From the IMG/VR virus record IMGVR_UViG_3300037316_000027, positions 32,001 through 96,000 of that record: DNA of 64,000 nt; one strand, 5' to 3'. Position 1 is the first letter of the stretch, and each line of letters starts with the position of its first letter. This DNA is from a virus. The notes below the pieces were generated by a model, which saw only the letters and a program-made list of their open reading frames with translations, made no database searches and was not told the origin of the DNA. The position numbers and the translations under genes are program-made. This document shows positions 3,022-54,020 of this stretch, one piece after another.

Positions 3022-3401
3022 TTTGTTTTCACTCTAATGCTGCGCGGGTCGAGCGCGATGATCTCGCGCTTATCTGCCCGCATCAGCGCGTCGTGCCCCA
3101 TCGCCCGGTATTTATCGAGCTGTGCCTTTTCGTATCCAATCCATTCCATCGTATCGTCGTCCAAAATCTTTGGGTTGCGCGGCGCGAACTCCGCCTCAAG
3201 AACGCGGGCTGGCTCCCCGGTTACTTCGGACCGCGTCTTGGCGTAGTTGCGGGCGTCCCCGAGGTTGCTCGTAAAGAACGGGCTATGCGGCACTCCGCTT
3301 GCGCCGGCAGTGCCGTGAAAGACGCGGGTTCTGCCGACACTCTCGACGCCTTGCGAATGCAGGCCCTTCCCGTCGCTCCCGTGGCCCAGTGCGTCCTTCA
3401 T
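3018..3401 (-). CDS. ADP-ribosyltransferase-fold (ART-PolyVal-like) protein with N-terminal MKDALGHGS tag
   Basis: Likely start ATG 3401 (TGATG overlap with the upstream gene). Motifs VFHGT, FFTSNLGDARNYA, VLEAEF..RNP, GHDAL and EIIALDP match the ART-fold pattern seen in phage polyvalent proteins. Confidence 0.65.
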   Translation of the reverse strand: MKDALGHGSDGKGLHSQGVESVGRTRVFHGTAGASGVPHSPFFTSNLGDARNYAKTRSEVTGEPARVLEAEFAPRNPKILDDDTMEWIGYEKAQLDKYRAMGHDALMRADKREIIALDPRSIRVKTK

Positions 3402-8880: not shown

Positions 8881-8920
8881 ATAATAGGCGGGAGGGATGA
8901 CAAGAACAACTAGGAATTAC
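8881..8920 (-). promoter_or_regulatory. Late promoter copy 1 (GTAATTCCTAG-TTGTTC-N17-TATTAT)
   Basis: One of five matching elements; upstream of the tail tube gene. Confidence 0.75.
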
Positions 8921-13783: not shown

Positions 13784-13923
13784 GATACTCTCCGCTAGGT
13801 GCGCGTTGGGGTGAAGGCGTTTCCGCATCTCTCCCCATGGAGAGTTTTGGTAAAACTTGCGCAGTGGAATTTCGCGACATCTCGACCATGCGAGGAAACG
13901 AAGTCACTGCAAATCGTGACGGG

Positions 13924-13963
13924 AGAATATCCGCTCATGTACTAGAAAACAACTGGGAATTAT
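13924..13963 (-). promoter_or_regulatory. Late promoter copy 2 (ATAATTCCCAG-TTGTTT-N17-TATTCT)
   Basis: Upstream of the major capsid gene. Confidence 0.75.
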
Positions 13964-14004: not shown

Positions 14005-15108
14005 CTACCGGAGAAGCTTCGTACGCTCCGGTCGGGGCTCGTACCAGCCCTTGCCGCCGAAAATATCTTTGACGGATTGGAAATAGTCGGTGTAGCGCGG
14101 GGCAACATTTTCGAGCGAAAATTGCTCTGCCCAATCGCGACAATCACTCGGCATGATCTGGTGGATGTTGCGCACGGCCCATTCGAACTGCTCGAAGGTT
14201 CGACAACGGAAGCCAGTCTTTCCCTGTAGATTATATTCGGCGAACGCGCCCCAGTCCGATGAGATGACCGGGGTCCCCGAAAGCATACTCTCGATTTGCA
14301 CGCCGCAGAACGGTTCAAGGAAGGTCGAAGCACAGATCGTCGCGCGCGCATCGCGTAGAAGAGCGCGACGCTTGATCGGACCGGCGTTTCCAACGTAGCT
14401 GATCAACTCGGTTGGCGGCTCCTGCACGCCGGGGCCTGCGATGACCAGCGGAGTGTTCGTCTTCTCCGCTAGCTGCTTGGCGATGTGAATGCCTTTACCG
14501 GAGTTGAGCCTGCCGAGGAACAGGAGGTAGTCCTTTTTCTGGTTGGAAAATTCAAAATCCCCGAGATTGAAAGCGTTCGGGATCACGGCATCATACCAGA
14601 ATTCGTTGCTGGCGCTCATCGCCGCCGCGTTGCCTTGATACGCGTGCATGATCGCGTAGCTCTCGTAGATTTTGAATTTCGCAAAGGTGCCATTCGGATA
14701 TCCGATGCCGCTCTCGACTACGATCATGTCTGGGTGTGCGTCGGCGACCGGCTTATGCCAGTCCCCGAAGGCGCAGAGCAGGAAGTCGCCCGGGTGCTTG
14801 CGCTTACCGATCTCCACGATAGCATTCTTGTAAAACTCGACGTAGCAGCGATCGGTCTTCGCGAAGGCAGGGAAACCGCTCTTGCGCCAGTTATGATTTG
14901 GATACGACTTGACAAGGTCGAACGCCGTCGTCACGGCGATGCTTTCATCGCACTCGACTTTCGAGTGAACGTTGCCATAGTGATAGACTTCGTGACCCTC
15001 CGCCTTCATCATCTTGCAGAGCTTGACGACCTTCTGAGTGAAGGCGCAGGATGAATACTCAGGCGTCGAGATTGTGTGCGGAATTCCCAGAATATGCAGG
15101 CGAGCCAT
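14005..15108 (-). CDS. Glycosyltransferase, GT-B fold (GT4-like)
   Basis: LLFLGRL..GKG, EPFCGVQIESMLSGTPVISSDWGAFAE (E-x7-E). Confidence 0.9.
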   Translation of the reverse strand: MARLHILGIPHTISTPEYSSCAFTQKVVKLCKMMKAEGHEVYHYGNVHSKVECDESIAVTTAFDLVKSYPNHNWRKSGFPAFAKTDRCYVEFYKNAIVEIGKRKHPGDFLLCAFGDWHKPVADAHPDMIVVESGIGYPNGTFAKFKIYESYAIMHAYQGNAAAMSASNEFWYDAVIPNAFNLGDFEFSNQKKDYLLFLGRLNSGKGIHIAKQLAEKTNTPLVIAGPGVQEPPTELISYVGNAGPIKRRALLRDARATICASTFLEPFCGVQIESMLSGTPVISSDWGAFAEYNLQGKTGFRCRTFEQFEWAVRNIHQIMPSDCRDWAEQFSLENVAPRYTDYFQSVKDIFGGKGWYEPRPERTKLLR

Positions 15109-15739: not shown

Positions 15740-16606
15740 TCACATATTGACGCCGGTCGTGCCGTTACTGGCCCCGGCACCCTGCGAACATGCTGTCTGT
15801 AGCGCGGTCCCGGTGGCTGTTGTGGCTCCCGAATATGTATAGGAATTGGTAGTCGTGGAGTTCACTCCGATCATGATAATGCCGACAGTTGGATTACCCG
15901 CAGAGCCGCCTCTCAGAGCCCCCGTTTGTAGAGCGGTGCTATTGGCGGTGGTGGCCCCGGCATACGTATAGGAGTTGGTGGCGGTGTTGGCAGAGGTGCC
16001 GCCTAGGGGAAAGATACCAATAGCTGAATTACCCACGCCACCGTCTGAGGGACCCAGTACTGATTGTAGACTAGTGCCAGCGGCCACTATGTCGCCGGAA
16101 TAGGTATACGCCCTAGTGGTGGAGGTTCCTTCGCCGACAGCAAAAACGCCTATCGTTGACATGCCCGCAGCCGCACCACGATACTCGGCATTAGTTAGGG
16201 TAGTCCCGCTTGCGCACGTATCACCAGAATACGTATACTTGTCGGTCGTGGCGCTGAATTGGCCGCACGCCAAAATCCCGACCGTCGCATTTCCCGCAGC
16301 AGCGCCCGAAGAGGTAACGGCATTTGGTAACGCCGCTCCGGCAACACACGTATCCCCGGCAAAAGTATATTTGTCACTCGTGTTAAATCCGGACCCGTGA
16401 GCAAAAATGCCCTTTGTCGCAGTACCAGCAGCACACCCCTCAAGAAAATTATTTGATGGGAGAGCCGTGGCAACGGTAGTCGATCCGCCCGCAAACAGAT
16501 ACTTGTTCGTAGTGGTCGTGAAATTGCCAACAGCGAAAATGGCGAGCGTCCCGCTCGTCGTCGTCGCGATTTCCGCAATTAGCAATGGTCCTACGAGCCC
16601 GACCAT
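15740..16606 (-). CDS. Gly/Thr-rich repeat protein (beta-propeller-like fibre tip)
   Basis: About six repeats of AAG..T.GIFA.G....TT.KYTYSGDT...GT.L; TAATG coupling at 16606. Confidence 0.65.
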   Translation of the reverse strand: MVGLVGPLLIAEIATTTSGTLAIFAVGNFTTTTNKYLFAGGSTTVATALPSNNFLEGCAAGTATKGIFAHGSGFNTSDKYTFAGDTCVAGAALPNAVTSSGAAAGNATVGILACGQFSATTDKYTYSGDTCASGTTLTNAEYRGAAAGMSTIGVFAVGEGTSTTRAYTYSGDIVAAGTSLQSVLGPSDGGVGNSAIGIFPLGGTSANTATNSYTYAGATTANSTALQTGALRGGSAGNPTVGIIMIGVNSTTTNSYTYSGATTATGTALQTACSQGAGASNGTTGVNM

Positions 16607-18131
16607 TATGTTAGCCCCACACCAGAGATGACCCATTCGGTCGAAGTCACTTTTTCGGCGGTAGCAACGCCATAGGCCGTGAGCGTGCGCGATCCCGTCG
16701 TGGACGCCGCGCCCGCGAGATACATCGTGTCGGAAGTGATCGCAATGGTCAGTACGCCAGCTCCGTGCTGGTTGATGAAGTGCAAGAACGTTCCAACCGC
16801 ATAGGCGACGTTCGCGTTGCTATCGATAGTGAACGTGCGCGCGGAGCTATCGGCAGTCGGATGCAGAACGCCGTTATTAGCATCGCCGAGTACAGTCGTA
16901 TAGGCCGCGCTCTTCGAGAGCAGGGTCATCGCGACAGCGGGACCCGTTGCACCGGTAACACCGGTTGCACCGGTTGCTCCGGTGACACCGGTCGCGCCTG
17001 TAACGCCAGTCGCACCGACCCCGCCCGCGATATCGAGCGTACAGATGTCGCCGTTCGTGAATGTCCCGACTTCTGCGACAAACGTCAGAGCAATTTCGAC
17101 CCATGTGTCGGAGCCCTGTTGCGTGACGGCCCCTGTCGTGAAAATCGCATAACCACCGAGCGTCGTGATGTCGCGGAGGATCAACGTCGATCCCACTTTG
17201 ATGGCATTCAACCACGCTATAGCACTCGGGTTGCCGCTGTCATGAGATGTGCCCATAATCGCGATATTAGCAACGCTCGCCCACGTCGCGTTATCAACCC
17301 TAAATGTTCCAGTCCCCGGCGAAGCCATCGTCGTAGTGGATGAATAGGCCCACGTAAGGTTTCCCGTGAGGCCGGTCGCGCCTGTCGCGCCTGCCGCGCC
17401 TGTCGCGCCTGTCGCGCCTGTGACGCCGGTTGCGCCCGTGACGCCGGTTGCCCCGACTGCACCGGGCTGACCCGAGAGATTGATACTCCAGTCAGCGTGA
17501 GTTCCAGTTCCGCTGTTGTTGCTCATCGAAATCGTCAGAGTAGTCGAGCTATAGCTCGTGCAGATGCCCTCCATCCATTCGTTCGTGCTAGTCGAAGTCG
17601 CGCGGACATACGCCCCGGCTTGGTATGCGAGGCCTGCTTGCGTCGTAAAAATTCGTGTACCAAGGCCCACTGTGCTGAGGCTCGTTGTAGAGGTCGCGTA
17701 ATACCCCGGGCCGGTTGCGCCAGTTGCCCCGGTTGCGCCCGTGACGCCAGTTGCGCCGGTCGCCCCAGTTGCGCCTATTGTTCCGAGCAGGCCTGCGTTC
17801 CACGTCTCACCGCTAAACATCAACAGTTGGCCAGCGACGAGGGGGCCGCACCAAAGCACGCGATACGTTCCATTGTCGTCAAGTTTAACAGTGACAGTCT
17901 GAGTGACCACGTCGTTATTATAGATCGTGATCTGCTTGACGCGGCGGATCGTACTCGCGGCCGGCGCAGCGATAATCGTCACTGGCGCGGTGCCGTTCGT
18001 TGTCGTGTCAGTCGAGCCGTCCGTGTACGCCGAAGAAGTGATGTCCGCGTAAGAGACAGTCACATCGCAATCGGACGTGTTCTTTGCGCCCGCGAGGACG
18101 ACGGTGATTGATTTGGTAGTTGCATCTAAAA

Positions 18132-18135
<4 letters not shown>
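16606..18135 (-). CDS. Collagen-like fibre protein 2
   Basis: Three [12 protein letters not shown] triplet runs separating globular domains. Confidence 0.85.
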
Positions 18136-20095
<1,960 letters not shown>

Positions 20096-20099
<4 letters not shown>

Positions 20100-21319: not shown

Positions 21320-21814
21320 TCAGGCACCGCTCATGCGGGATTTTCGTTTCTGGGGTTTCGATGGAAACGCCCAATTCACTAATCCGGGCTGAAATGATCG
21401 CTCAAGATAGAGTGCCCGTAATCGCAATAGTTTAGGACTATCCTTGATGCCCGTACCATTGTTGCACCCATGACAGCACCAACCGCGAAAACGGCCGGTA
21501 GCATGGCAATGATCAAAATGTAGAGTTCGAGTTGAGACCTCACCGCAACACTCACAACTTTCCGGTGGCAAACGCCCGGGGATTTCAATAGGCATCATAT
21601 ATTGCGTAGCAATAGTTATCGCTCGCCTTTCAGGCCGCTGGCGATAAGCCCTCTTAGCCGCCTTAGCTTCTGGAGTTCGTTGTCGGGCAAGCGCCGCCGC
21701 TAGATATTCCGGCGTTCGGCTACGCTCGCGCTTTCGATCGCGCAGACGGGCACGAGAGCGTCTCGCATCCAATGATTGATCAACAAAATGCGAGGCACGT
21801 GTATCACCGGCCAT
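21320..21814 (-). CDS. Endonuclease VII-family (HNH-type) nuclease, probable homing endonuclease
   Basis: CECC...LHFDHCHATGRFRGWCCHGCN motif; basic N-terminus. Confidence 0.8.
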   Translation of the reverse strand: MAGDTRASHFVDQSLDARRSRARLRDRKRERSRTPEYLAAALARQRTPEAKAAKRAYRQRPERRAITIATQYMMPIEIPGRLPPESCECCGEVSTRTLHFDHCHATGRFRGWCCHGCNNGTGIKDSPKLLRLRALYLERSFQPGLVNWAFPSKPQKRKSRMSGA

Positions 21815-22115
21815 AGTTTTTCCTCTTGTGCAACAGTCCTCGGCCTAGGCGGAAGATGTGCTGTCTCGTGATCTCTGTCGCGCCATTGGAGCCGTTCAAT
21901 CGACGGCTTCCGATGACGCGGTGAGCGATATCGGTGTTATCCTCGCCGGCTGTCAGGCCGACGCTGAGCGCGGAGTGGATGCGATTGGCATCATCAGCCG
22001 CGATACTTCGAGCCCATGCAACGAGCGTGTGCCCATGAATTTTCAGTGTTCGCGGTGCCCGGCGATGCCGGTCCCACGCGATGCCGTCGTGCTCGTGCTC
22101 TTCGACATCAGTCAT
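21804..22115 (-). CDS. Truncated MuF-like head morphogenesis protein (~103 aa)
   Basis: GHTL..WA..IAADD..RI..AL..GLTAGE....IA.RVIGS..LNG.NG..EITR resembles the central part of MuF/SPP1 gp7 proteins; the C-terminal MuF core is absent. Confidence 0.55.
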   Translation of the reverse strand: MTDVEEHEHDGIAWDRHRRAPRTLKIHGHTLVAWARSIAADDANRIHSALSVGLTAGEDNTDIAHRVIGSRRLNGSNGATEITRQHIFRLGRGLLHKRKNYGR

Positions 22116-22977
22116 CTTTTCGGCCTTCGTCCTCAACCCACTTCGGGAGCAGGCCCATCTTCTGCGGCGCGTAGACAGTATGCTCGCTGTCCGCAGTCCT
22201 GTTCGAAACTCCATGCGGGCCGTAGTTGACCCACGAATTCTGTCCGCGCGTGCCTGCTGTCATCGCCGGACGCGCAAGGTCCGAATACATCGCAGCGTGA
22301 GAGCGCCAAGCATTCTCTTCGCCGCCAGCCCGGAAGCCATTTCCTTCTTTCATGTGTCCGTTCATGTCATGCACGATCCGGAAGACATCGTTGGCGACGA
22401 CTTTACGGCCGCCGATAACTTCGCCCGTTTTCTTGAGGACGGGGCTGTCCTTTTCGTAGGCCCTCGCCTCGGGGCCGGTGCCGAACCCCTGATCGGTGGG
22501 AAAGCCCCACCAGTGATTATTCTCACTCACATCCTGCGCTCCGAGACGCGGCGACGCGGCATACGGGTCCTTTTGGCCGGGCTTGATCCAATCGACTTTC
22601 AGTCCGGTTGCCTTGATGGCTTCCCACTGCGCTTGCGTCTCCTTGATCATCGCATCGTAACTGGCCTTCGTCGCCGGTTCGGTCGGCGTGTGCTTCATCT
22701 CGTCGAACGCGTCCGCGATGCGCTTGGAACGATCGACATCGACCGGCACGTACTTCTTCGGAGGGTCGTATGGCAGACCCGCCGACTTCATGTAGCTCGC
22801 CGCTGCGTCCTTGAGCCGACCGATCGGTCCGGGAACATACCACTTGCCGCCCAAGTTGATCGGCTTCTGCGGCAGGCCTTCGAGCGGCTTGTGACCGCCA
22901 GCGACCTTGTCCGCCTGCGCCTGCGCAGCGGCCCACTCGCCTTTCTCGTCTCGTGCCTCGTCGGGATTATATGTCAC
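22108..22977 (-). CDS. Polyvalent-protein-type domain (HDxxGH...EENAW..H) with NPDEARDEKGEW leader
   Basis: NDVFRIVHDMNGH...GFRAGGEENAWRSHAAMYS...TRGQNSWVNYGP, recalled from large phage polyvalent proteins. Confidence 0.6.
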   Translation of the reverse strand: MTYNPDEARDEKGEWAAAQAQADKVAGGHKPLEGLPQKPINLGGKWYVPGPIGRLKDAAASYMKSAGLPYDPPKKYVPVDVDRSKRIADAFDEMKHTPTEPATKASYDAMIKETQAQWEAIKATGLKVDWIKPGQKDPYAASPRLGAQDVSENNHWWGFPTDQGFGTGPEARAYEKDSPVLKKTGEVIGGRKVVANDVFRIVHDMNGHMKEGNGFRAGGEENAWRSHAAMYSDLARPAMTAGTRGQNSWVNYGPHGVSNRTADSEHTVYAPQKMGLLPKWVEDEGRKDD

Positions 22978-23395
22978 TGGGCAAGTTATCCCGTAGATGG
23001 CGGAACGCCGCCTTGATGTGGCGCTCCCGGTGTGCAGCGATCTTCTTCGTCAGCTCGTCGCGCGTGAGCATCGCGTCACTGACCTTGGTTCGATTGATCC
23101 CGGCCACATCCATCAGCTCGTTCTCGATCATGTCGCGGATTTGCGGTTCGCTCTGATCGAGGATGTTGATCGCCTCCATGAACGTCTTGATGATGTGCTT
23201 GACGTGCGGGTCGCTCGTCTTGTCGCTCACGTCCTGCGCAGCCTGCTTCAGCGCACCAAACGGCCCATCATTCGATTTGTCCACCAGCTCCGGAAACATA
23301 GCAGCGGCGTTCTTGGCGAAGTCGGCCGCATTGCCGCTCGGAATGTCTCCCGGACCATCCGGGTCCGTGATCTGCGGTGCGTAGGTATCTTTCAC
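22967..23395 (-). CDS. Hypothetical protein (142 aa)
   Basis: Overlapping-coupled ORF in the head operon. Confidence 0.6.
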   Translation of the reverse strand: MKDTYAPQITDPDGPGDIPSGNAADFAKNAAAMFPELVDKSNDGPFGALKQAAQDVSDKTSDPHVKHIIKTFMEAINILDQSEPQIRDMIENELMDVAGINRTKVSDAMLTRDELTKKIAAHRERHIKAAFRHLRDNLPSDI

Positions 23396-24672
23396 AGCTT
23401 CACACCTTTCTCGGTCGCGATCTTTCGCAGCTCGGTGCTGTAGTCAGTGTTGAGACGTTCCGTGTTCCGGCTTCCCAGTTTCGTGTAGAGCCGCTTTTCC
23501 GGATACCACCACGTTGCCTGCATATCGGCGATCGTCATATGATGTCCCGCATCCGCGAGCTTCTGTTGGGCCTGATCGAACACGTCTCGAATGTGCTGGC
23601 GCTGGCTTCCGTTGCCGGGCTGATCCTTGATGCCCCCGACCGCGAGTTCATACCGCTCGGCCGCGTATGTCAATTCCGATTTGGTCTTCGTTCCGGCGTC
23701 GAAGTCCGCGCGGTTGTCCTTAAAATCCTTGATATGGGCCAGACGAATGTCTGCGGCCAGCTTAACCATTCGGGGCTCAGTCGTCGGGATTTTCTGCCCG
23801 GCGGCCTTGAGCGCAGCAGTGAAGCGCGCCTTCGGCTTTTCTACGTCTACCGTCCCAGTCAGCGTGCCCGTGAGACGGCCCCAGCCGCGCATGAGCCACA
23901 TATCGGCGGTGAGAGGTTTGAAGTTTCCATTGAGGTTCTGATAAAATCCCTGTCCGATTTTCGGTCCCAAGATCGCGGAGCCATACATCTTGGCCCCCAT
24001 GTTTTCGCCGCTCACGGGCATGCCCATCTTGTCGAGATCGCCAACGGTGTATTCCTTGTCCAGAAACGCTTGCGCGCCCGCGACGCCCATGGTCCCAATC
24101 AGCTTGTTGAGCTTGTCGAAATTGCCGTTGATGCTGATCCCAGCCTTTCCGGCCTCCATGTCAGTCGGGAATTTCCCGGTCTTCTCAAAAATTCCATATG
24201 CCTTGTCGGCGAGGGCGGTGTTGATCTGCACGGTTTGGTTCTGGCTCGTGACCGCCAGCGCGGCGGTGAAAGCGAACTTCGCCGCCGGGTTGTCGGCCAT
24301 TTCCGGGTGCAGCTTTTCGGCGACGCCCATGGCATCCTTCATGCTGCTCGTGTACCAGTCCTCTGCGTTGCCGCCGCGCTTCAGCTCGTTCTCAATCTCT
24401 GAAGCGATGGCGCTCGAAACGATGTTATCCGCTTTCGCGTTCGGCCCCTCTTTCCCTTTCGGCTCTTCGATCACGCCGCCCGGGATGCCGAGCGCCTTGA
24501 GAGCGGCCTGCCCGCGCGCATTCAGCTCCTTGGCGATGTCCGGGTTGCTGCGCGAGCCCGGTTTCGCCATGGTAGGATCATTCAGGATCGAGTTGACGGT
24601 GAGCTTGTCGTAAGCTCCGCCCGCCGTCCACTCTCCGTGCGCATCGCGCGGCTCGTCAGGATTGAAGGTCAC
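23392..24672 (-). CDS. HhH-GPD DNA glycosylase-like protein with NPDEPRDAHGEW leader
   Basis: WY...ALAVTSQ...GPKIG..FY.NL.G...LTADMW..R...QATWW pattern of the HhH-GPD fold. Confidence 0.6.
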   Translation of the reverse strand: MTFNPDEPRDAHGEWTAGGAYDKLTVNSILNDPTMAKPGSRSNPDIAKELNARGQAALKALGIPGGVIEEPKGKEGPNAKADNIVSSAIASEIENELKRGGNAEDWYTSSMKDAMGVAEKLHPEMADNPAAKFAFTAALAVTSQNQTVQINTALADKAYGIFEKTGKFPTDMEAGKAGISINGNFDKLNKLIGTMGVAGAQAFLDKEYTVGDLDKMGMPVSGENMGAKMYGSAILGPKIGQGFYQNLNGNFKPLTADMWLMRGWGRLTGTLTGTVDVEKPKARFTAALKAAGQKIPTTEPRMVKLAADIRLAHIKDFKDNRADFDAGTKTKSELTYAAERYELAVGGIKDQPGNGSQRQHIRDVFDQAQQKLADAGHHMTIADMQATWWYPEKRLYTKLGSRNTERLNTDYSTELRKIATEKGVKL

Positions 24673-29950: not shown

Positions 29951-30238
29951 TTACCGCTGAAATGAGCGATTGGTGATGGGACCACGGGCGCGCCGGATGT
30001 TGGCGGCCGGAATTTTCCCGCCCTCGTCATTGCGCGAGCGCATGGTCGGAGTGGTCGGCACTTTCTGCTCGGCGGAGACGGGGCGCGTTTGCGGGTTGAC
30101 GCCGACTGGCACAGTAGCCTGCGGCAGGAAGCCGGAAGTCGTGTGCTTGCCGGGAGTGTCGCTCGACGGACCAGCGAAGCCGTTCTGGCCGTAGCCATTG
30201 TCCGACTTCATCTTGCTTCCAACTACGTCAATCGCCAT
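29951..30238 (-). CDS. Small basic Gly/Pro-rich protein
   Basis: ORF downstream of late promoter copy 4. Confidence 0.5.
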   Translation of the reverse strand: MAIDVVGSKMKSDNGYGQNGFAGPSSDTPGKHTTSGFLPQATVPVGVNPQTRPVSAEQKVPTTPTMRSRNDEGGKIPAANIRRARGPITNRSFQR

Positions 30239-30344
30239 GATCGTCTCTTTCGTCAATGTCGCTACCGTGCAGCCCGTCTTCCGCTTCCAGCCTTTCGGCT
30301 TCGGCGTCAGCTTCGAGCCACTCGCTCAGAAAGTCGTCCACAGA

Positions 30345-30719
30345 TTAGCGGCCGAGGCGCGCGGCCTCTGCGAGGACGGCCTTGCCGAGATTGCCGTTGA
30401 CCGACTGGCCGTTGGCGTCCTTCATGCCCCACGAGGACTTGAGTTCGCCCGGCTGCCGACGCAAAACCTTGTCGGTCGGCGACGGATCGAGCGGGTTCGG
30501 GCTGGAGGCGTCGGGCGCGTGATCGAAGCCCGGGCTCGTCGGCGACGCGCCGCGAAGCTTCGAGGCATCGGTCTGATCCTTCATGCCTTCCTTGACAGGG
30601 AATTTGGTCTGGGTGCGCTTCGCAGCGCCAGAGCGCGGATCGACGGGGCTGTTGGAAATGCGATCCTGCATCGCGGGGTCGATGGTCTTCGCTACAACGC
30701 CGCTACCTTTGACTGCCAT
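30345..30719 (-). CDS. Small disordered protein
   Basis: AAGGA RBS; first gene after late promoter copy 4. Confidence 0.6.
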   Translation of the reverse strand: MAVKGSGVVAKTIDPAMQDRISNSPVDPRSGAAKRTQTKFPVKEGMKDQTDASKLRGASPTSPGFDHAPDASSPNPLDPSPTDKVLRRQPGELKSSWGMKDANGQSVNGNLGKAVLAEAARLGR

Positions 30720-30753
30720 GTGCGTGATCCTTACGAGTTGGAATTTCTCCGCA

Positions 30754-30793
30754 AGCATACGCGTAGCGCAGCTTCGGAACAACTGGGAATTAG
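30754..30793 (-). promoter_or_regulatory. Late promoter copy 4 (CTAATTCCCAG-TTGTTC-N17-TATGCT)
   Basis: Matches the five-copy consensus. Confidence 0.75.
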
Positions 30794-30837: not shown

Positions 30838-31503
30838 ATGCCCCATTTTCTCTATCGCATCGTTGCTCCAGATGGTCGTGCCTACATAGGTGTTACCAAG
30901 AGCCCGAAAAAGCGTTTCAGTGCCCACTGCCATCGCTCTTCGTCGGCGGTCAACGCAGCGATCAGAGAGTTCGGCCGCGCCGCGATGAAATTCGAATTAC
31001 TCACCTGCGGACCTAACGAGTATATCTACGAGCTTGAAGCGGCAGCCATTACTGCTTTTAATACTCGGCAGCCGAACGGTTTCAATCTGGCGATTGGCGG
31101 TCCTGCCGGGCGGTCCAATCGCAACCCGCTTCCGTCTACGCGTACCCGACTGTCAGAGGCGGCTAAGAAAAATATCAAAGCTCAAGTGGCTATGACGCTT
31201 GCTGCGACGGCAGCGCGACTTGGGAAACCCCTCCCAGCCACAACACGCGCAAAAATATCTGCGGCAAACAGCGGCACAAAACCCGCCGCACATACGATTG
31301 CGGCGTCGGTAGCCGCGCGAAAAGGCAAGCCTGCATGGAATAAAGGAATATCACCGTCTGCCGCGACCCGCACGAAACAGTCGATAGCGAGCAAGAATAA
31401 CCCGAGGGTGGTAGCGGCACAAATTTTTGCGACGGCGAAAGCGGCAGAGAAGCGACGAATTATGTCGAGCCGAGCGGGCCGCCCGGACCTGAGCCGCCGG
31501 TAG
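30838..31503 (+). CDS. GIY-YIG homing endonuclease with NUMOD3-like repeats
   Basis: FLYRI...AYIGVT...RF..H...E...I..FNT...GFNL; TRAKISAAN.G and AWNKG repeats; opposite strand to its neighbours. Confidence 0.85.
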   Translation: MPHFLYRIVAPDGRAYIGVTKSPKKRFSAHCHRSSSAVNAAIREFGRAAMKFELLTCGPNEYIYELEAAAITAFNTRQPNGFNLAIGGPAGRSNRNPLPSTRTRLSEAAKKNIKAQVAMTLAATAARLGKPLPATTRAKISAANSGTKPAAHTIAASVAARKGKPAWNKGISPSAATRTKQSIASKNNPRVVAAQIFATAKAAEKRRIMSSRAGRPDLSRR

Positions 31504-31690
31504 TTGGGGGACCATTTGCTCCGGGCGCAGCTCCGCTCCCCGGCGAGCCCGGAAGAACTTGAGCTGGTTCCGGAAAGCTCGGCGGATCACTCTTGGGATG
31601 GCCATTTGCCAACACATCAGCGGCTTCATCATCGGTCACGCTCCGGTTGGGTTTGTCCCACTGGATATTGCTTTTAGATGCTCGCAGCAT
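31460..31690 (-). CDS. Small protein with PKS-box motif
   Basis: AADVLANGHPKSDPP resembles the motif shared by genes at 33.2-35.2 kb. Confidence 0.55.
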   Translation of the reverse strand: MLRASKSNIQWDKPNRSVTDDEAADVLANGHPKSDPPSFPEPAQVLPGSPGSGAAPGANGPPTTGGSGPGGPLGST

Positions 31691-31691
31691 G

Positions 31692-32150
31692 TTACTTCCC
31701 CTTGAGTTTCATATAGACGACATCGGGTCCGCCCGCTGTCCAATTCTTTTCGCGATGATCTTCAACGAACCCGTGCTTCGCGTAAATCTGCGGAAGCCCG
31801 ACATCGAACGCGTCGAGGGTTTTCCCGCCGGCCGCTTTCGCCGCTTCGATAGCCGCGCCGCCTGCGCCCTTTTCGCCTGAATTGTTGAACACGCTCTGCA
31901 CGTCACCTTCGGGAGAGACGGCGGAGCCGACCTTGCCGTCGTTGCGAAGGATCAGCGTGTGATGGTCGAGTTCGCTCGGGTCGGCGTGAGGCGTGAACAT
32001 GCCGACGCGCGAAGACTGATTGCGCGCAGCCAAGAACTCAGCAGGGGCGGCGCGGCGAAAGCCATTGGGCAGGCCGATGTTGTTGATGCCCGTCGCGTGC
32101 GCGGGGCCGCCGCGCGGGTTCGATCCGTGTCCGCCTGCATCCTTGGGCAT
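31692..32150 (-). CDS. GNAT-fold acetyltransferase-like protein with KDAGGHGS tag
   Basis: SVFNNSGEKGAGGAAIEAAK..GG.TLDAFD..LP..YAKHGF matches GNAT motifs A/B. Confidence 0.7.
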   Translation of the reverse strand: MPKDAGGHGSNPRGGPAHATGINNIGLPNGFRRAAPAEFLAARNQSSRVGMFTPHADPSELDHHTLILRNDGKVGSAVSPEGDVQSVFNNSGEKGAGGAAIEAAKAAGGKTLDAFDVGLPQIYAKHGFVEDHREKNWTAGGPDVVYMKLKGK

Positions 32151-32521
32151 TACGAGTTACTCCATTTGGCATCGCATGCGCACTGGGGCCAGAGATGCCA
32201 TGCACGCGGTACGGTGTGCCCGACATGGTGATGGCGTAGGCGTGCGTGCGGGACCGGAACGTAAGAGGGCATCACCGCCTGCGGATACGCGAACGCGGCG
32301 ACCTTGGTCTCGGGGAACGGCGCGGGCTTTCGTTCGATGACCCTATCGACGAACGTTTCGACTTTCGTTTCGACGGTCTTCACGATCACCTTCGGTCGAA
32401 AGACCAACCGCTCAACGGTCTTCGTCTGAGCTGGCGCGGCGACAGGCTTATCCTGCTCATGGAAAAAGACGAGGGTCACGACGGCAGCTAGCACAATGAT
32501 CGATGGGATGGTGATGTTCAT
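32150..32521 (-). CDS. Membrane-anchored hypothetical protein
   Basis: N-terminal hydrophobic helix; coupled overlaps. Confidence 0.5.
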   Translation of the reverse strand: MNITIPSIIVLAAVVTLVFFHEQDKPVAAPAQTKTVERLVFRPKVIVKTVETKVETFVDRVIERKPAPFPETKVAAFAYPQAVMPSYVPVPHARLRHHHVGHTVPRAWHLWPQCACDAKWSNS

Positions 32522-32981
32522 CCGAGTGGCCTTTCTGATGGCAGCACAATTCGCTTCTGCGCCCGCGTGCGTCGATCGGCCGATGCCATGTTGCGGATGG
32601 CTGCGTTCGGTGCCGAGATGTTCGACGGAGCGCCAAGCTTCGGGATCACGTCCATCCGCGAGGCGTTAATGCTTTTTGGTTGTTCGATCTGATCTGTCAT
32701 TTTGCTCTCCGCATAGCGTCGATTTGGGCAACAGTTTCTCTGACTGCATGCATCTCGCCATCGACGCGAAGAACCGCTTTCGTGCCCGGAGTGTTCGCAC
32801 GGTCCTCGTCGAAGGTTTCAGCGCGGGTGTTTTCATTCTTTCATTATCGACTTCGGCTTATCCACGACAAACTCGTCAAGGGCCTTATCGAGCGCGGAGC
32901 CGATCGGCAGAAGCGCGTGCGGGCACTCTTGGAGCCTTTCCTTGTCGTCATACCGGCGTTTGCATTTCGGGCAAGTGATGA

Positions 32982-33212
32982 TCATGATCCGTATCCTCGG
33001 TCCCATTCCTGTGCGAGTTGCCCCGCGTTAGGGGCGAGCTTATCCGCGTGCGGGTTGTCCGCCGGTCGTCCAAGGCGCTTGGCCTCTCGACCCTTGTGGA
33101 ACGCGATCTCCAGCGGCGACATCGTAGGCGTCGGCGTGAAGTCCGCATGCGGGACGGCGATCGTCACTCCGACCGAATGCGTAGGTTTCGAAACTCGTTG
33201 CATCGGTGCCAT
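32982..33212 (-). CDS. Small protein, Rmf/CrpP-like motif
   Basis: AF..GR.A...G....NP......W.RGY pattern. Confidence 0.4.
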   Translation of the reverse strand: MAPMQRVSKPTHSVGVTIAVPHADFTPTPTMSPLEIAFHKGREAKRLGRPADNPHADKLAPNAGQLAQEWDRGYGS

Positions 33213-33496
33213 TAGCTTGCTGCCTGATATCCGCGCTGTTTCGCCATCGTCTGAATGTTGTCGGCCAGAACCGGCGTGGTATCGTAGCCGCCCACGCTGT
33301 CGTGCACTGGGACCGGGTCCGACTTCGGCCCGCTGTAGAGTTCGCTGGCCGCGTCAGTGTTCTGCGTTGACGTGGCGAAACCGCGCACGCCCGGAATAGA
33401 CCCCGAGGTCCCTCGGACCCCGGGAGCAGTCACGAAGCCGCGTGCGCCCTCGTCCGCGAGATCATTCGTCCCCGATGTGCCACGTTCGTTTTTCAT
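33212..33496 (-). CDS. Small protein with PKS-box
   Basis: AASELYSGPKSDPVPVHDS; internal PGVRG duplication. Confidence 0.65.
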   Translation of the reverse strand: MKNERGTSGTNDLADEGARGFVTAPGVRGTSGSIPGVRGFATSTQNTDAASELYSGPKSDPVPVHDSVGGYDTTPVLADNIQTMAKQRGYQAAS

Positions 33497-33996
33497 CGCC
33501 CACTCAGAAGTCGGTGGATCATCTTCGCTTCGCGCCCGCCGATGCGTCGTCCGCTACGGTTCGAGCTGTTGATCGCGTTCTGCACCGCGCCCGCGTGATA
33601 GTTGGGGTTCGATCGCGACCAGCCATTCTTCGCATTGTAACTCGCCTGATCGGTTGCGCTCCAGTGAGAAGGGGCCGGACCCGCGCCCGGGTATGTATCC
33701 TGTACCATGCTGTCGTGCACCGGGACTGTGTCCGACTTCGGCGTACCACTGTGAAGCTGATCAGCGGGCGCATCCGACTTGCCGCCCCGGGCGCGATAGC
33801 CCATGACGGTTGCCGCGTCCGCGACTTGATCAGCGTATTTGCTGATGCCTCTCTGATCGCCCATCTCCTGCGCGTTGCGCCCGGCCTCGGCGGCGTCCTT
33901 CGCGATGAAGCGAAGCTCGTCGTTGGTCTTCGTGTGCATCGGCGAGCCCGAGATCGGCTTCGCATTGCTTCCGTGGCCTTTTGCGTCTTTTGCCAT
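33493..33996 (-). CDS. KDAKGHGS-tagged protein with PKS-box
   Basis: MAKDAKGHGSN; LHSGTPKSDTVPVHDSM. Confidence 0.75.
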   Translation of the reverse strand: MAKDAKGHGSNAKPISGSPMHTKTNDELRFIAKDAAEAGRNAQEMGDQRGISKYADQVADAATVMGYRARGGKSDAPADQLHSGTPKSDTVPVHDSMVQDTYPGAGPAPSHWSATDQASYNAKNGWSRSNPNYHAGAVQNAINSSNRSGRRIGGREAKMIHRLLSGR

Positions 33997-34000
33997 CTGT

Positions 34001-34270
34001 TTACTCTTCCGTGTTGGGTCGAGACGGGTTCATGCTCTTGAGCATGTTATAAATCCCGCTCTTGATGCCGGCGGCATCGGTCATTCCGGCGTGAACCGGC
34101 ACTGAGTTCGACTTCGGACCGCCGCTCGAAAGTGTGCTCGCCGCTGCTTGATCAGATGCCCCATAGAACTTGGCACGATCAGCTACGGATAGAAATTGCC
34201 GAGCGCGAGCGTATGGTATCTTCAGCGCGCCGCCGTTACCGTTACTGCCGTGTCCTTTGGCGTCTTTCAT
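34001..34270 (-). CDS. KDAKGHGS-tagged protein with PKS-box
   Basis: MKDAKGHGSN; AASTLSSGGPKSNSVPVHAGM. Confidence 0.75.
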   Translation of the reverse strand: MKDAKGHGSNGNGGALKIPYARARQFLSVADRAKFYGASDQAAASTLSSGGPKSNSVPVHAGMTDAAGIKSGIYNMLKSMNPSRPNTEE

Positions 34271-34341
34271 TTTAGAAAAATCCTCTCAAGAGCGCACAGA
34301 CCGCGCCGCTGATGATGATGATGGCGAAAACGTCGGCCACC

Positions 34342-34758
34342 TTAGTAGCTCACGCGGGCGAGAGACGCTGCTCGTCGGGCAGTGTGATCGGGCTGAGCGC
34401 CTACGTCACCACTCCAGCCGTGTTTGGCCTGATATGCGTCGGACAGGTTTTTGCCATAGTCTCCCTTGGTCGAGACGCCGTTGCTATCGCGGTCACCCCA
34501 ATCCTGTCCGTGACCGCCCGCCATGCTGTCGTGCACCGGCACCGGGTCCGATTTCGGGCCGCCGCTTGAGAGCGTGCTCGCCGCTTCTCGATCGCCGCCC
34601 GGAGTGTTGCTCCATGCATCCTGTCCGGCGATCGGCGTACCTTGACTGACAACTCGGCTGAGCACGCCCAGCGGATGGTTTGGATTGGTGCGCGCCGCCG
34701 CGAGCCGCGCCATCGCGCCGCTGCGCCCGTTGCTACCGTGGCCTTGTGCGTCTTTCAT
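34342..34758 (-). CDS. KDAQGHGS-tagged protein with PKS-box
   Basis: MKDAQGHGSN; AASTLSSGGPKSDPVPVHDSM. Confidence 0.75.
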   Translation of the reverse strand: MKDAQGHGSNGRSGAMARLAAARTNPNHPLGVLSRVVSQGTPIAGQDAWSNTPGGDREAASTLSSGGPKSDPVPVHDSMAGGHGQDWGDRDSNGVSTKGDYGKNLSDAYQAKHGWSGDVGAQPDHTARRAASLARVSY

Positions 34759-34931
34759 GTGCCTGCTCCAAGTGCTGACCCGATGCCGTAGCCCAGAGTT
34801 GAGCCGACTTCGAGTTTGTTCTGCCCGGTGCCGACCATCGCGGGATGGATCGGTGCCTCGTGAGACTTTCCGCCACCGAGCGCGACCGCGACCTTCACGT
34901 CCTGATCGGTCACTGCCGGCGCTCGTTTCAT
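34755..34931 (-). CDS. Small protein with PKS-box variant
   Basis: ATGA-coupled; AVALGGGKSHEAPIHPAM. Confidence 0.55.
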   Translation of the reverse strand: MKRAPAVTDQDVKVAVALGGGKSHEAPIHPAMVGTGQNKLEVGSTLGYGIGSALGAGT

Positions 34932-35248
34932 TTCTGTCCTCGCCACGCTGCCGAAGCCAGTCTCTCGCCTTGACTTTGTCCGCGCGTTACGACGCCGCTG
35001 ATCCGATCACCGAGACCTGTGGGCGCTCGCCCCGTGGTCGGGTTCGAAGCCCGACCGGCCATCGCATCGTGCACGGGGGCTTGCGTAGACTTCAGCGTGC
35101 TCATGAGCGACTGCGCTGCTTGCGCGTTCGAAGTCGTGTCGCGCAACAGCGTCGGGCGCGGGCCGCCGAACATCCGCGCGTCTTCTCCCATCCGTTGACG
35201 GAGAAAAGCACCAGTGCTGCCGCTACCGTGTCCAAGTGCATCTTTCAT
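34928..35248 (-). CDS. KDALGHGS-tagged protein with PKS-box variant
   Basis: MKDALGHGS; AAQSLMSTLKSTQAPVHDAM. Confidence 0.75.
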   Translation of the reverse strand: MKDALGHGSGSTGAFLRQRMGEDARMFGGPRPTLLRDTTSNAQAAQSLMSTLKSTQAPVHDAMAGRASNPTTGRAPTGLGDRISGVVTRGQSQGERLASAAWRGQK

Positions 35249-35256
35249 TAGACTGT

Positions 35257-35643
35257 TTATCCTTTGATCCGTCCGTTGGGGCCTTCGCTTCGTTCGCTGG
35301 GACGAAGGGTCTTATAGCGGAAAGATTTGTCGTTCCCCAAGCCGGGGTTCAAATCAGCCCCGCTAACTTTCGCGGCTCGGCGCTGCACGGCGGGATCGCC
35401 GTGATCAGATTTGAACCGATAATCGCCGCCGGTCGCAGCAGCGACGAAGAAGTCACGCCGAAAACCGGGGTTCGTGGTCGCGAGCTTGTCAGCCATTGCG
35501 TGGACTTCGTCCGGTTTCGCGCCTCTCGCCTTCAAGTCGGAGGCGATTGCTTCGAAATGCCGACGCTGCAACTGCGGGGTTGCCTTCACGCCTTGCGAGT
35601 GGATGCCACTGCCGGCCGAACCGTGTCCAAGTGCGTCTTTCAT
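35257..35643 (-). CDS. KDALGHGS-tagged protein
   Basis: MKDALGHGSAGSGIHSQGV, then a RRHFEAIA...LATTNPGFRRDFF domain. Confidence 0.75.
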   Translation of the reverse strand: MKDALGHGSAGSGIHSQGVKATPQLQRRHFEAIASDLKARGAKPDEVHAMADKLATTNPGFRRDFFVAAATGGDYRFKSDHGDPAVQRRAAKVSGADLNPGLGNDKSFRYKTLRPSERSEGPNGRIKG

Positions 35644-35658
35644 GGGGGAGCCCCTTCC

Positions 35659-36063
35659 TCAGTAGTCTTCGCCGGACATGCCGACCTTGTGATACTTGAC
35701 TTGAACCCGATCGGGGCTCTTCGGGGCCACGCTGTAGCCCCGGCGATTGTCCTGTAGTTCGCGCGCTACGTCGCGCCAATTCTCGCGCTTGGCATACGCT
35801 TCATCGACCCGAGACTTTTCGCCAGCGCTCAGGCCTTCCGGCTTTTGACTGCCGGACCAAAGCCCGAGCAAGTCTTGAACGCCGCCCGTAAATCGCTCCG
35901 CTGGCATCGTCGCGTGATAGACCGCGTCCGACATGCCGCCAAACACTCCGCCGCCCTTCGCAGGGAGCGCGTTGACAGCGGCAGCATGTGTCGCTACCGG
36001 CGCAGCCGCCGGAGCAGCCGCACCGCCGCGATCTTCCGAACCGTGGCCGAGTGCGTCCTTCAT
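35659..36063 (-). CDS. KDALGHGS-tagged protein
   Basis: MKDALGHGSEDRGG; GAGG RBS. Confidence 0.75.
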   Translation of the reverse strand: MKDALGHGSEDRGGAAAPAAAPVATHAAAVNALPAKGGGVFGGMSDAVYHATMPAERFTGGVQDLLGLWSGSQKPEGLSAGEKSRVDEAYAKRENWRDVARELQDNRRGYSVAPKSPDRVQVKYHKVGMSGEDY

Positions 36064-36070
36064 GGCAGCC

Positions 36071-36310
36071 TCACGCGTTGTGGTATTTGCAGTCGTGCTT
36101 GCCCAAGACCGCGTCGGCCTTGTGCTTGATCTTCGATGCCTGCACAGGAGAGAGCTTGCCCTTCGAGACCATCTCGCTTTCGCGCGCGAGCGCGTCGCGG
36201 GCGTGAGCCGGGTTCTCGACGGGATACTTGCCCGGCTTGCCGTTCTTGCCCGGGAGAGCGAATTTCGACGACGGGATTGCCTTGCGGGTCTTCGCAGTGA
36301 GTGCGGCCAT
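36071..36310 (-). CDS. DUF6582-like small basic protein
   Basis: LTAKTRKAIPSSKFALP...KYPV....HARDALAR; GGAGG RBS; first gene after late promoter copy 5. Confidence 0.65.
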   Translation of the reverse strand: MAALTAKTRKAIPSSKFALPGKNGKPGKYPVENPAHARDALARESEMVSKGKLSPVQASKIKHKADAVLGKHDCKYHNA

Positions 36311-36342: not shown

Positions 36343-36382
36343 AACTTAGCGCGCAATGGTTCCCGAGGCAACTGGGAACTAC
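36343..36382 (-). promoter_or_regulatory. Late promoter copy 5 (GTAGTTCCCAG-TTGCCT-N17-TAAGTT)
   Basis: Matches the consensus; heads the tagged-gene cluster. Confidence 0.7.
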
Positions 36383-52899: not shown

Positions 52900-54020
52900 T
52901 TTGCCTAGTTGAAAACCGGAACTGTGTCAAGGGAAGTTTTTCTTAAACCCGAATTTTTAATTTTTCTGAATTCCGACTTGAAAACCGGAAGGTGTGTGCG
53001 CACAAGGGCACATAGCACTTTCGGCCGATCGCCGATTTTGGGGTCCTACCCCGTATGTCTGCGCCGCCACGGTAGCACCAACCTTGCCAGCCCCTCAAGC
53101 ACGCGCAGGTTGTAATTCATCATGTGGTTTATAATTAAGGTTAATGGTTCGATCTGCTAACGTGGTTACTAGTTAAGGTTAATAGGCTCCCTACCCTAGG
53201 GCTGGCGTTAACGTTAATAGTTAAGGTTAATGCACGATAGTCTAGCGTAGCGCATGCTGGCGTTAACCTTAATAGTTAAGGTTAACGCCAAGTGGTATAG
53301 TAGTAGGGTTGACAGCCCCCTACAGGGGTGGTTAACCTTAATTAGTAACCCTACCTACAGCCGGGGGCTTGTGTAACGCCCTGATACAGGGTATAAGTGC
53401 TTGATATTGCTAGCCAAAGGGCGTTGGTAGGGTTAATAGTTAAGATTTACCTAGCTCCGTGTACGTTAAGGTTAATGAGTAAGGTTAACGCGCCCCTGAT
53501 TAGGGTTAATCTTAACTATGTTGACAGCCGGCGCTTGACATGCATGCGCTACGGTAGCAGATGGCGGATGCCAACTAAGCGGCGGAGCAACCATAGACCC
53601 GACAATCAATCGCTCATCATGTTCAGATGGTGTACCGAGCGGCTGAGCGATAATCAAATCAAGCACTTAAGAGCCGATTATACAGGAAACTTGTGATGTT
53701 TTGCATGGTGGCCTTTCTGAGTATAGCCGATATACTGACACTTCCGATAGTGTATATCCTGTATTCTGTAGCATGAACTTAGAGAAGACAGTAAGGACCA
53801 TGTGTAACCGTGAATAAGCGATTGATTTGTCAACTATAAAAGCCTCTCACTCTTCATTGAGTTAATCACAGGCTTCACTGAGTACCTGAGTAGAAGATTG
53901 TCCAACAGTTTCAAGGATCGGCACCCGGCCAGCCCGCTCAAAGCGGCAAAACTTGACAGTGTCAGAAACCCGTGATAATGACCCCAAACGACCCCTCAAA
54001 AACGACCCCTAAAAAGGCAT
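52900..54020. repeat. AT-rich non-coding block with TTAAGGTTAA/TTAACCTTAA repeat array at the strand switch
   Basis: At least seven TTAAnnTTAA units between 53135 and 53520, a palindrome at 53259-53289, repeated TTGAAAACCGGAA and AAACGACCCCT; no credible gene. Confidence 0.75.

Follow-up and report, generated by a model that had tools for sequence, protein, structure and literature searches.

The internal proteins of bacteriophage T4 form a variable set of otherwise unrelated proteins, presumed to act at the onset of infection, whose sole common element is a short N-terminal peptide (PMC3012670, PMC9026906). In IPIII, the first ten residues are sufficient to target the protein to the capsid, with residues 4 and 7 important for targeting and residues 8 and 10 for processing; the protease gp21 cuts after Glu (PMC9026906). 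For polyvalent proteins of the ART-PolyVal type, injection together with the DNA has been predicted, and among T4 proteins, the ADP-ribosyltransferase (ART) Alt is packaged (PMC5512222). Here, we analyzed a 64,000-nt stretch of viral DNA (the window), bases 32001–96000 of the 126,820-bp virus record IMGVR_UViG_3300037316_000027, which CheckV rates as complete. Eight small genes of this uncultured soil phage open with the peptide KDAxGHGS, hereafter called the tag. Based on sequence and predicted structure, on which the whole analysis rests, we put the probability at roughly one-half that the tag serves as a leader, standing at the mature N-terminus of injected effectors that the virion carries, and that it thereby marks small, Cys-free, basic proteins that are made late, carried in the virion, and delivered with the DNA.

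The tagged genes resemble those of the T4 proteins IPI, IPII, IPIII, and Alt. The tag is likewise common to a variable set, since the 236 complete tagged proteins from this phage and its relatives fall into 110 clusters (40% identity over 60% of length); the cargo genes occupy a variable locus between conserved flanks, and there is a predicted ART among the cargo, as Alt is in T4. The tag differs from the T4 capsid-targeting sequence (CTS) in that positions 4, 7, and 8 of M-K-D-A-x-G-H-G-S-N are Ala, His, and Gly and position 10 is not Glu, and the complete source genome has no match to PF03420, the gp21-type family. In addition, the tag is kept across unrelated head lineages, in one of which, made up of T4-like phages, it is an extra element behind a CTS-like leader. 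Unlike the T4 sequence, which is cut off, the tag would remain part of the mature protein.

With polyvalent proteins, as the available part of PMC5512222 describes them, the tagged proteins share an overlapping domain stock (ART-PolyVal, GNAT, ParB_N, methyltransferase-like, and HNH-like), genes that adjoin packaging or late genes, and predicted injection with the DNA. Polyvalent proteins carry 2 to 15 domains per chain according to the same source, whereas the tagged genes are small and separate (89–167 aa, with at most one folded body); the giant relatives of one tagged protein lack a tag-like motif, and a few multimodule proteins with internal tags occur elsewhere. MuF-domain and portal-fused effectors also use a constant head-associated part to carry variable effector domains into the particle, but that part is a folded head domain of several hundred residues (PMC5512222, available part), compared with some 13 disorder-like residues for the tag. 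In design, the tag thus parallels the T4 internal-protein system, and its bodies come from the domain repertoire of polyvalent proteins. Encapsulin cargo-loading peptides are likewise short and conserved, have a Gly-rich flexible linker, and address diverse enzymes into an HK97-fold shell; they are mostly C-terminal and bind one cognate shell. The tag differs from them in its requirement for the N-terminus and in occurring among phages whose capsid proteins are unrelated in sequence. To our knowledge, phage-injected proteins are known for a handful of model phages only, and there is no general sequence rule for them. A literature search with six tag heptamers, which did not extend to supplementary files, found no mention of the tag.

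A portable peptide on eight genes

A six-frame search with the pattern KDA.GHGS gave exactly eight matches in the window, and the whole genome gave the same eight, compared with a chance expectation from amino acid composition of 0.0004 matches in the genome. All eight lie on the minus strand, directly after an ATG start (as M, MA, or MP), which bears out the claim of a model-made first-pass annotation of this DNA that eight genes share an N-terminal tag. The genes start at 36063 (A), 35643 (B), 35248 (C), 34758 (D), 34270 (E), 33996 (F), 32150 (G), and 3401 (H). As also annotated, four of them continue with a second box, H(S/A)x(G/A)(V/I), which reads HAAAV in A, HSQGV in both B and H, and HATGI in G. 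The description of the eight as unrelated proteins is only partly right, since C, D, E, and F share an internal motif and B and H have about 35 N-terminal residues in common.

Over the 246 tag copies of the phage lineage to which the source genome belongs, all four Gly codons and both codons each of Lys, Asp, and His are used, and Ser is encoded by both codon families, AGY and TCN. Because codons vary freely and the same peptide occurs in a lineage with 39% GC, selection acts on the tag as a peptide and not as DNA, in agreement with the annotation. The longer consensus is X-KDA[K/L]GHGS[N/D/E]x[R/H]G[G/A], followed by a stretch rich in Gly, Ala, Ser, and Pro.

Gene G (31692–32150, minus strand, 152 aa) encodes MPKDAGGHGSN, a linker, the box HATGINNIG, and a GNAT acetyltransferase-like body, and it matches phrog_2563 over residues 62–150 only. 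Twenty of 25 aligned relatives of G are tagged. One has the second box without the tag, and two others, at 40 to 44% identity, have neither tag nor linker, their body starting directly. The AlphaFold2 model of G has a predicted local distance difference test (pLDDT) score of 79.7, with residues 1–26 below 50. Foldseek returned 24 PDB matches at E ≤ 0.001, and all those listed are GNATs or acetyltransferases (E from 1e-4, TM score 0.5–0.6). The alignment shows a loop, V-K-G-A-G-G-A-A, and a C-terminal I-Y-x-x-H-G-F, which we take to be the CoA-binding motif. Based on the model, G folds as a GNAT. G-type GNATs are present in cultured Streptomyces and Pseudomonas phages; that of Streptomyces phage Verabelle, the one cultured-phage GNAT examined, is untagged.

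Gene H (3018–3401, minus strand, 127 aa) stands apart in the tail module and encodes MKDALGHGSD, the box GLHSQGVESVG, and an ART-like body. Among 32 representatives of its relatives, 30 are untagged and two are tagged. Several of these relatives are proteins of 100 to 114 aa that open at the Y-H-G-T strand, and others are internal modules of 887- to 2540-aa proteins with ART-PolyVal plus LPD22 or LPD38, none of which contains KDxxGHG or GHGS. The body of H matches ART-PolyVal modules of 1115- to 2540-aa proteins carrying LPD22 or LPD38, and H itself has no Pfam match at E ≤ 1. Its model has a pLDDT of 82.6, with residues 11–18 below 50 and an average of about 50 for the blocks covering residues 1–20. 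Foldseek alone gave no match for H at E ≤ 0.001. In VIA-align, the best structural match was a pre-ejectosome chain of cyanophage A4 (Z 8.4, root mean square deviation 2.3 Å over 95 residues; next row 6.8), and rows 2 to 50 were almost all PARP/ART-fold domains or ART toxins (Z 6.0–6.8). The ART fold is marked by a conserved His (H-G-T), an aromatic-x-S/T strand, and a late Glu; in the alignment of H, residues H29, G30, T31, and E113 are either invariant or conserved in 90% or more. Hence, on the model, H has an ART fold related to ART-PolyVal modules. By its residue numbers, the matched A4 chain is probably a protein of more than 1,700 residues. The accessible text of the cyanophage A4 paper describes ejection proteins that the capsid stores, without reference to ADP-ribosylation.

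The segment behind the tag has low, disorder-like confidence in both predicted models. Since the GNAT body of G and the ART-PolyVal-like body of H both have untagged relatives, the tag is, on sequence comparison, detachable from its bodies. The first-pass annotation had set full-length paralogy against a detachable tag, and the untagged G relatives and H representatives speak for the latter. Its call of varied effector bodies, ART-like and GNAT, holds in the structural comparisons, and its notion of a portable signal grafted onto varied bodies stands in so far as portability is concerned.

Tag copies in related and unrelated phages

A back-translated tag pattern, which covers part of codon space, was run on IMG/VR contigs and gave 81 stretches on related viral contigs from soil; their genes come from crude open reading frame (ORF) calls, and several loci are near-duplicates. 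Together with the source genome, they contain 331 K[DE]xxGHG sites, all at gene starts: in 322, a Met precedes the site by no more than three residues, and in the remaining nine, a GTG or TTG codon comes directly before it. The sites represent 254 distinct tagged proteins with a median length of 127 aa, none exceeding 206 aa. Homologues of TerL were found in 39 loci, of the TerS-like gene in 40, of the portal gene in 32, of a 145-aa gene in 46, and of a 79-aa gene in 33. Because these homologues recur across the loci, the related loci are, judged by gene content, one phage lineage with a conserved layout. In the 21 loci with both flanks, the arrays stand between the conserved 79-aa gene and the packaging genes and comprise 3 to 10 tagged genes in 1.6 to 6.7 kb. 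A stricter pattern applied to 185,579 species genomes gave four loci only, all in alphaproteobacterial metagenome-assembled genomes. Two of these are considered prophages because they adjoin a TerL 45 to 46% identical to that of the source phage on contigs of 436 to 611 kb.

The tagged proteins are distinctive in composition, 232 of the 236 complete ones being Cys-free (8 Cys in 29,425 residues) and their median isoelectric point being 9.9. Many have a second module. The X box, HxxG(V/I)xx(I/V)(G/P), lies 11 to 18 residues in from the N-terminus, and the consensus of the PKS box is sNAxAAxxLxsGPKSxx(V/A)P(V/I)H(D/P)(S/A)M. Sixty-seven of the 236 have the X box only, 40 the PKS box only, none both, and 129 neither (Fisher p 4.5e-7). 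If the tag does mark cargo, this mutual exclusion suggests a small grammar of short cargo-handling peptides. In the source genome, the strict pattern finds the X box in A, G, and H, with a variant in B, and the PKS box in C, D, E, and F and in two untagged ORFs. The PKS box was found in 58 distinct frames (source positions 31460–35248 plus loci L009–L086), 42 of them behind a tag. A strict scan for it gave 12 viral stretches, all among the loci found through the tag, and for this reason the box appears to be restricted to the source phage lineage. Pfam matches among 111 representative tagged proteins include ART-PolyVal (2), Acetyltransf_1 (2), Arr-ms (1), HTH (1), sigma region 4 (1), and ParB_N (1), to which PHROGs adds ParB-like, methyltransferase, and HNH matches. 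A homologue search for longer fused relatives of B, for which the tag is too short, gave none among 393 candidates at E ≤ 1.

The tail module of the lineage has a slot of its own for tagged genes. At all eight loci that include the 156-aa tail gene, the stop of this gene coincides with the start of a tagged gene, whose body differs between loci. Four of the eight have another tagged gene behind the tape measure gene, encoding about 205 aa with a V-W-Y-H-G-S strand; several of the eight are near-identical copies, so that the independent cases are fewer. In the source phage, the ATG of H overlaps the 3′ end of the upstream 156-aa gene.

A scan for Glu-x-tag gave 60 stretches, 48 of which are on T4-like contigs with about 39% GC. 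These 48 loci contain 78 tag copies, and 68 of the 78 lie 7 to 11 residues after an in-frame Met; in a few loci, the leader before the tag has at least 29 residues. Two adjacent genes are tagged, encoding a protein of about 400 aa with DUF6267 (Pfam 1.6e-99, domain from residue 27) and a protein of 1000 to 1270 aa that opens with a cytidylyltransferase-like module. The leaders read M-K-S-F-L-T-Y-L-K-E-E and M-I-T-F-K-E-L-F-E-A; the pattern of the former, with aromatic residues at 4 and 7, an aliphatic residue at 8, and Glu at 10 (F4, Y7, L8, E10), fits the targeting and processing positions of T4 IPIII. Peptidase_S77 (PF03420, the T4 gp21 family) scored above the cutoff in three of five T4-like records, and the two records without it are 43% and 36% complete. 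In these phages with a gp21-type protease, the tag begins one residue after the predicted cut behind the Glu that ends the leader. In one complete T4-like record, four adjacent genes have the leader, two with the tag and two without.

Leader and tag are separate elements on this comparison, since the leader occurs without the tag both in these neighboring genes and in the cultured relatives Melnitz and S-CRM01. The annotation had treated the tag as a candidate capsid-targeting signal. This part of its proposal does not stand for T4-like phages, where a separate leader of 7 to 11 residues precedes the tag and two of the four leader genes are untagged, which entails that the tag is not the capsid-targeting sequence there. 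The sequence CTAAATAAT occurs ten times in the complete T4-like record, always on the coding strand, and precedes the baseplate wedge gene, the tail tube gene, and both groups of leader genes; it looks like the late promoter of the T4-like lineage. Taken together, the tag is linked, as far as gene context tells, to late or structural settings in two or three unrelated lineages.

Internal copies of the tag occur in a few multimodule proteins. A scan that did not demand Glu gave 21 new loci, mostly chance matches in fiber-like repeats. Among them, a 358-aa Cys-free protein (loci L181 and L191) has two internal tags, each after K-A, and two DUF2213-led proteins have one each, after G-N-A (L179) and after A-N-E (L185). 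The L179 protein is encoded two genes after the portal gene. The L185 protein is a 1199-aa open frame (L185:512-4108) on a 94-kb viral contig, in which the internal tag reads A-N-E-KDALGHGSD and three further joints read x-x-N followed by GGPGSGP(R/Q/H), Asn preceding all four joints. GGPGSGP resembles G-H-G-S-x-x-R-G, as if both peptides were variants within a single G[H/P]GS class.

The four adjacent leader genes of the T4-like record G002 (103970–110160, loci L159–L166) encode the DUF6267 protein, a 221-aa basic protein, and two cytidylyltransferase-like proteins. By eye, the DUF6267 protein has a K-x-D-G ligase-like motif, and no mention of DUF6267 was found in the literature. Their predicted functions suggest that the four genes together are a packaged RNA-repair or nucleotide-salvage kit. 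A receptor for the tag shared by the two lineages was also considered and ruled unsupported, the single tblastn match between them being an exonuclease-like protein.

Probable late expression and a proposed role of the tag

The array of seven tagged genes lies behind a copy of the promoter-like site that also precedes the capsid and tail genes, as annotated. The consensus is TTCC(C/T)AG-TTGyyy, a 17-nt spacer, and TAnnnT, and there are four copies on the minus strand, each after a stop codon. Copy 1 (36343–36378; TTCCCAG TTGCCT, 17-nt spacer, TAAGTT) precedes the 79-aa gene and the array; copy 2 (30754–30789) precedes two small conserved genes, the TerS-like gene, TerL, and the portal gene; copy 3 (13924–13959) precedes the major capsid gene (12677–13828); and copy 4 (8881–8916), with one mismatch, precedes the tail genes. 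An exact 10-mer of the site occurs three times compared with about 0.24 expected in the genome by an arithmetic estimate. Upstream of the 79-aa homologue, a match with at most one mismatch is present in 8 of 32 related loci, and looser AGTTG or GGTTG cores are visible in most of the others. The site looks like a sigma-70-type promoter with an upstream extension, and we infer from the genes downstream that the four copies are late promoters. A late-type, structural setting, in line with the first-pass annotation, shows both in the promoter motif shared with capsid, tail, and packaging genes and in the tagged gene of the tail module.

Our preferred reading, a leader on injected effectors, draws on this promoter type and the tagged slot in the tail operon and on the kinship of the cargo with ART-PolyVal and pre-ejectosome modules. 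Initiator Met is retained before Lys and removed before Ala, Pro, Ser, and Gly. Given this rule and the position of the tags at gene starts, the mature end is always one residue followed by KDA. The source phage would make this X-KDA end directly at the start codon, and in T4-like phages, a gp21-type protease would remove the leader and thereby produce the same end. As T4-like phages have a separate targeting leader, the tag most likely acts after loading, at the free N-terminus. Its most likely role would be that of a flexible leading end by which cargo leaves the head through portal and tail, although it might instead hold cargo in the DNA-filled head. The cargo would then be a first-strike set of host-modifying enzymes, like T4 Alt. 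No head protein is detectably shared between the two lineages, and the partner of the tag is therefore probably generic, such as the structure of the portal–tail conduit, the DNA, or some universal host component.

A bolder extension, which we hold only tentatively and consider rather doubtful, is that the free N-terminal X-KDAxGHGS is a universal delivery leader of unrelated head lineages, comparable to a virion secretion signal. Any protein with the tag at its mature N-terminus would be taken out of the head via portal and tail into the next host, while lineage-specific elements (the T4-type capsid-targeting sequence and the PKS box) would handle loading, and the tag might belong, together with the GGPGSGP joints, to a broader G[H/P]GS class.

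Several observations weigh against an injected-effector leader. Tail operons are common moron sites, and a position in the tail module is by itself weak evidence. The Glu two residues before the tag in T4-like genes was required by the scan pattern, and the two Glu-free scans that found the same genes again cover part of the codon choices. The tag seems dispensable in the cultured relatives Melnitz and S-CRM01, which have the same gene cluster and similar leaders and where it is present in none of nine coding sequences examined. Upstream of the first T4-like leader gene lies a sigma-70-type promoter close to the consensus, so that early expression is possible. No common partner is visible, as a tblastn search of the source-genome ORFs against the complete tagged T4-like record gave one shared protein, which is exonuclease-like. 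As for a loading route, the tagged proteins of the source genome have no CTS-like leader, and the complete genome has no match to either prohead protease family searched, PF04586 (S78) and PF03420 (S77), ClpP- and S49-type families being outside the search. The low Cys content has to be read against control ORFs of the same loci with 1.7 to 2.2% Cys, which stem from a crude ORF call with spurious frames. Also, the second module is missing from 129 of the 236 tagged proteins, the 12 Pfam families found on the 111 representatives each occur on one or two of them, and none of the sequencing runs listed for the stretch is recorded as RNA.

Among the alternatives, the one nearest to the first-pass annotation has the tag itself as the loading signal, docking cargo to scaffold, portal, or inner capsid surface during procapsid assembly in the manner of the T4 capsid-targeting sequence or an encapsulin cargo-loading peptide. 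A short conserved peptide with a flexible linker on diverse cargo would suit such a signal, and so would an array that is hypervariable between conserved flanks (3 to 10 genes, 21 loci), as T-even internal-protein loci are (PMC3012670). The source phage, moreover, has a scaffold gene (phrog_206), no protease that was found, and no other leader on its tagged proteins. Still, nine residues kept across phages without detectably shared head proteins are hard to square with docking to a lineage-specific scaffold, and the T4-like phages place a separate CTS-like leader before the tag and have untagged leader genes next to it, so we regard this explanation as unlikely. Somewhat less likely again is that the tagged proteins are not virion cargo at all and that the tag is an intracellular handle, be it a peptide binding a host hub, a chaperone handle, or a degron timing late small proteins. 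A peptide conserved among phages whose hosts differ greatly points to a universal partner, N-terminal recognition systems typically demand a free N-terminus, and the sigma-70-like promoter of the first T4-like leader gene fits as well. The conserved 79-aa first gene could be the common handler, but it has relatives in cultured phages and none in the T4-like record. Such a handle would not account for CTS-like leaders where a gp21-type protease is encoded, for the constant position of a tagged gene in the tail operon, for the almost complete absence of Cys, or for the kinship of the cargo with polyvalent-protein and pre-ejectosome modules.

The internal copies in L181, L191, L179, and L185 raise a further possibility, namely that the tag serves chiefly as a joint or processing motif in cargo polyproteins, next to a head-protease cut, stand-alone copies being former modules. 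The three additional x-x-N/GGPGSGP joints of L185 agree with this, and a cut one residue before Lys would give the same X-KDA end in every case. Against it, all 331 copies in the lineage stand at gene starts and no protease gene was found, meaning that the peptide is kept without cutting; the residue two before the tag varies by lineage (E, K, or N), so that no single protease rule fits; and the giant ART-PolyVal relatives of H have no tag-like motif. We therefore consider a processing joint improbable, more so than an intracellular handle. Finally, the shared start could be an RNA-level feature, that is, a translation-initiation context or a regulatory element, given that the tag is always at the start codon in the source lineage. 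The free synonymous variation with both Ser codon families, the different codons at 39% GC, and the copies that lie 7 to 35 codons inside T4-like genes and 120 to 900 codons inside other proteins make this highly improbable, and we rejected it on account of the codon variation and the internal copies.

If the injected-effector leader is correct, a simple sequence rule picks hundreds of candidate injected effectors (ART, GNAT, ParB-like, and many unassigned) from uncultured soil and aquatic phages, and entry into the head and exit from it, which are merged in the T4 model, become separate steps. If the bolder, universal version also holds, metagenomes would offer a readable catalogue of injected first-strike effectors, and the tag would be a portable handle for phage delivery of chosen proteins. 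Cultured phages (RDJL3, Melnitz, S-CRM01, and Verabelle) were examined one by one and not as a pattern-scanned collection. Roseobacter phage RDJL3, whose TerL is 59% identical, has no match to a loose tag pattern; B has no relative that was found among cultured phages, and the 79-aa gene has six weak matches there.

Genes of the array and its surroundings

On the minus strand, the order is the 79-aa gene, the seven array genes, a GIY-YIG homing endonuclease gene on the opposite strand, two small conserved genes, the TerS-like gene, TerL, the portal gene, a head-morphogenesis region, the scaffold gene, collagen-like fiber genes, a glycosyltransferase gene, the major capsid gene, a head–tail adaptor gene, the tape measure gene, the 156-aa gene, tagged gene H, and a gene for an 867-aa protein. 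The capsid and TerL proteins are 52 to 59% identical to those of 58-kb siphoviruses of Pseudomonas, Xanthomonas, and Roseobacter.

The conserved first gene of the array (36071–36310, minus strand, as are all array genes that follow) encodes 79 aa and matches phrog_16160 (E 1.5e-17), with a weak DUF6582-like match. Gene A (35659–36063, 134 aa) encodes MKDALGHGSE, an Ala/Gly linker, the box HAAAVNALP, and a body without a Pfam or PHROG family. Gene B (35257–35643, 128 aa) encodes MKDALGHGSAGSGIHSQGV and a body without an assigned family, with homologues in 18 loci; its first 35 residues are those that resemble H. The motif common to C, D, E, and F is (A)STLxSGxPKSxxVPVHDxM. It reads TLKSTQAPVHDAM in C (34928–35248, 106 aa), GGPKSDPVPVHDSM in D (34342–34758, 138 aa), GGPKSNSVPVHAGM in E (34001–34270, 89 aa), and GTPKSDTVPVHDSM in F (33493–33996, 167 aa), which starts with MAKDAKGHGSN and has homologues in 18 loci. 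Two untagged frames have the motif as well. The ORF at 34755–34946 (63 aa, GTG start) contains GGKSHEAPIHPAM; it is uncertain whether it is a real gene, and a homologous frame is present in L039 and L062. The gene at 33212–33496 (94 aa) contains SGPKSDPVPVHDSV, has homologues in six loci, and gives a weak match to phrog_2206 (N4 virion RNA polymerase, E 0.03). Within the array region, a 76-aa gene (32982–33212) with homologues in 21 tag loci has a match below the cutoff to Pfam RMF (ribosome modulation factor, E 7.8e-5).

Between the array and the packaging genes lies the homing endonuclease gene (GIY-YIG/NUMOD3, 30838–31503, plus strand). No neighbors of the arrays are more widely conserved than the two small genes (29951–30256 and 30345–30782; 35 and 46 loci, respectively) that separate the TerS-like gene from the promoter-like copy at 30789; their products are Cys-free, rich in Pro, Ser, and Gly, and without a family. 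The head-morphogenesis region looks split into ORFs at 23392–24672, 22967–23395, 22108–22977, and 21804–22214, the last of which is a MuF-like fragment encoded as a separate ORF, and it includes an endonuclease VII-like gene (21320–21814, minus strand). Two large collagen-like fiber genes (16606–20099; Gly-X-Y, 9-nt period) occupy an unusual site between the scaffold and capsid genes and may encode head fibers. The glycosyltransferase gene behind them (14005–15108; phrog_3408, E 5e-127), directly upstream of the major capsid gene, may act to glycosylate virion proteins.

Farther away, the lowest-GC stretch (53% GC), at a switch of coding strand, contains at least five GTTAAGGTTAAT-like repeats (53124–53491) and may be an origin or regulatory region. 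A 121-nt direct repeat with 89% identity follows at 55144–55264 and 55366–55486, the copies being 222 nt apart.

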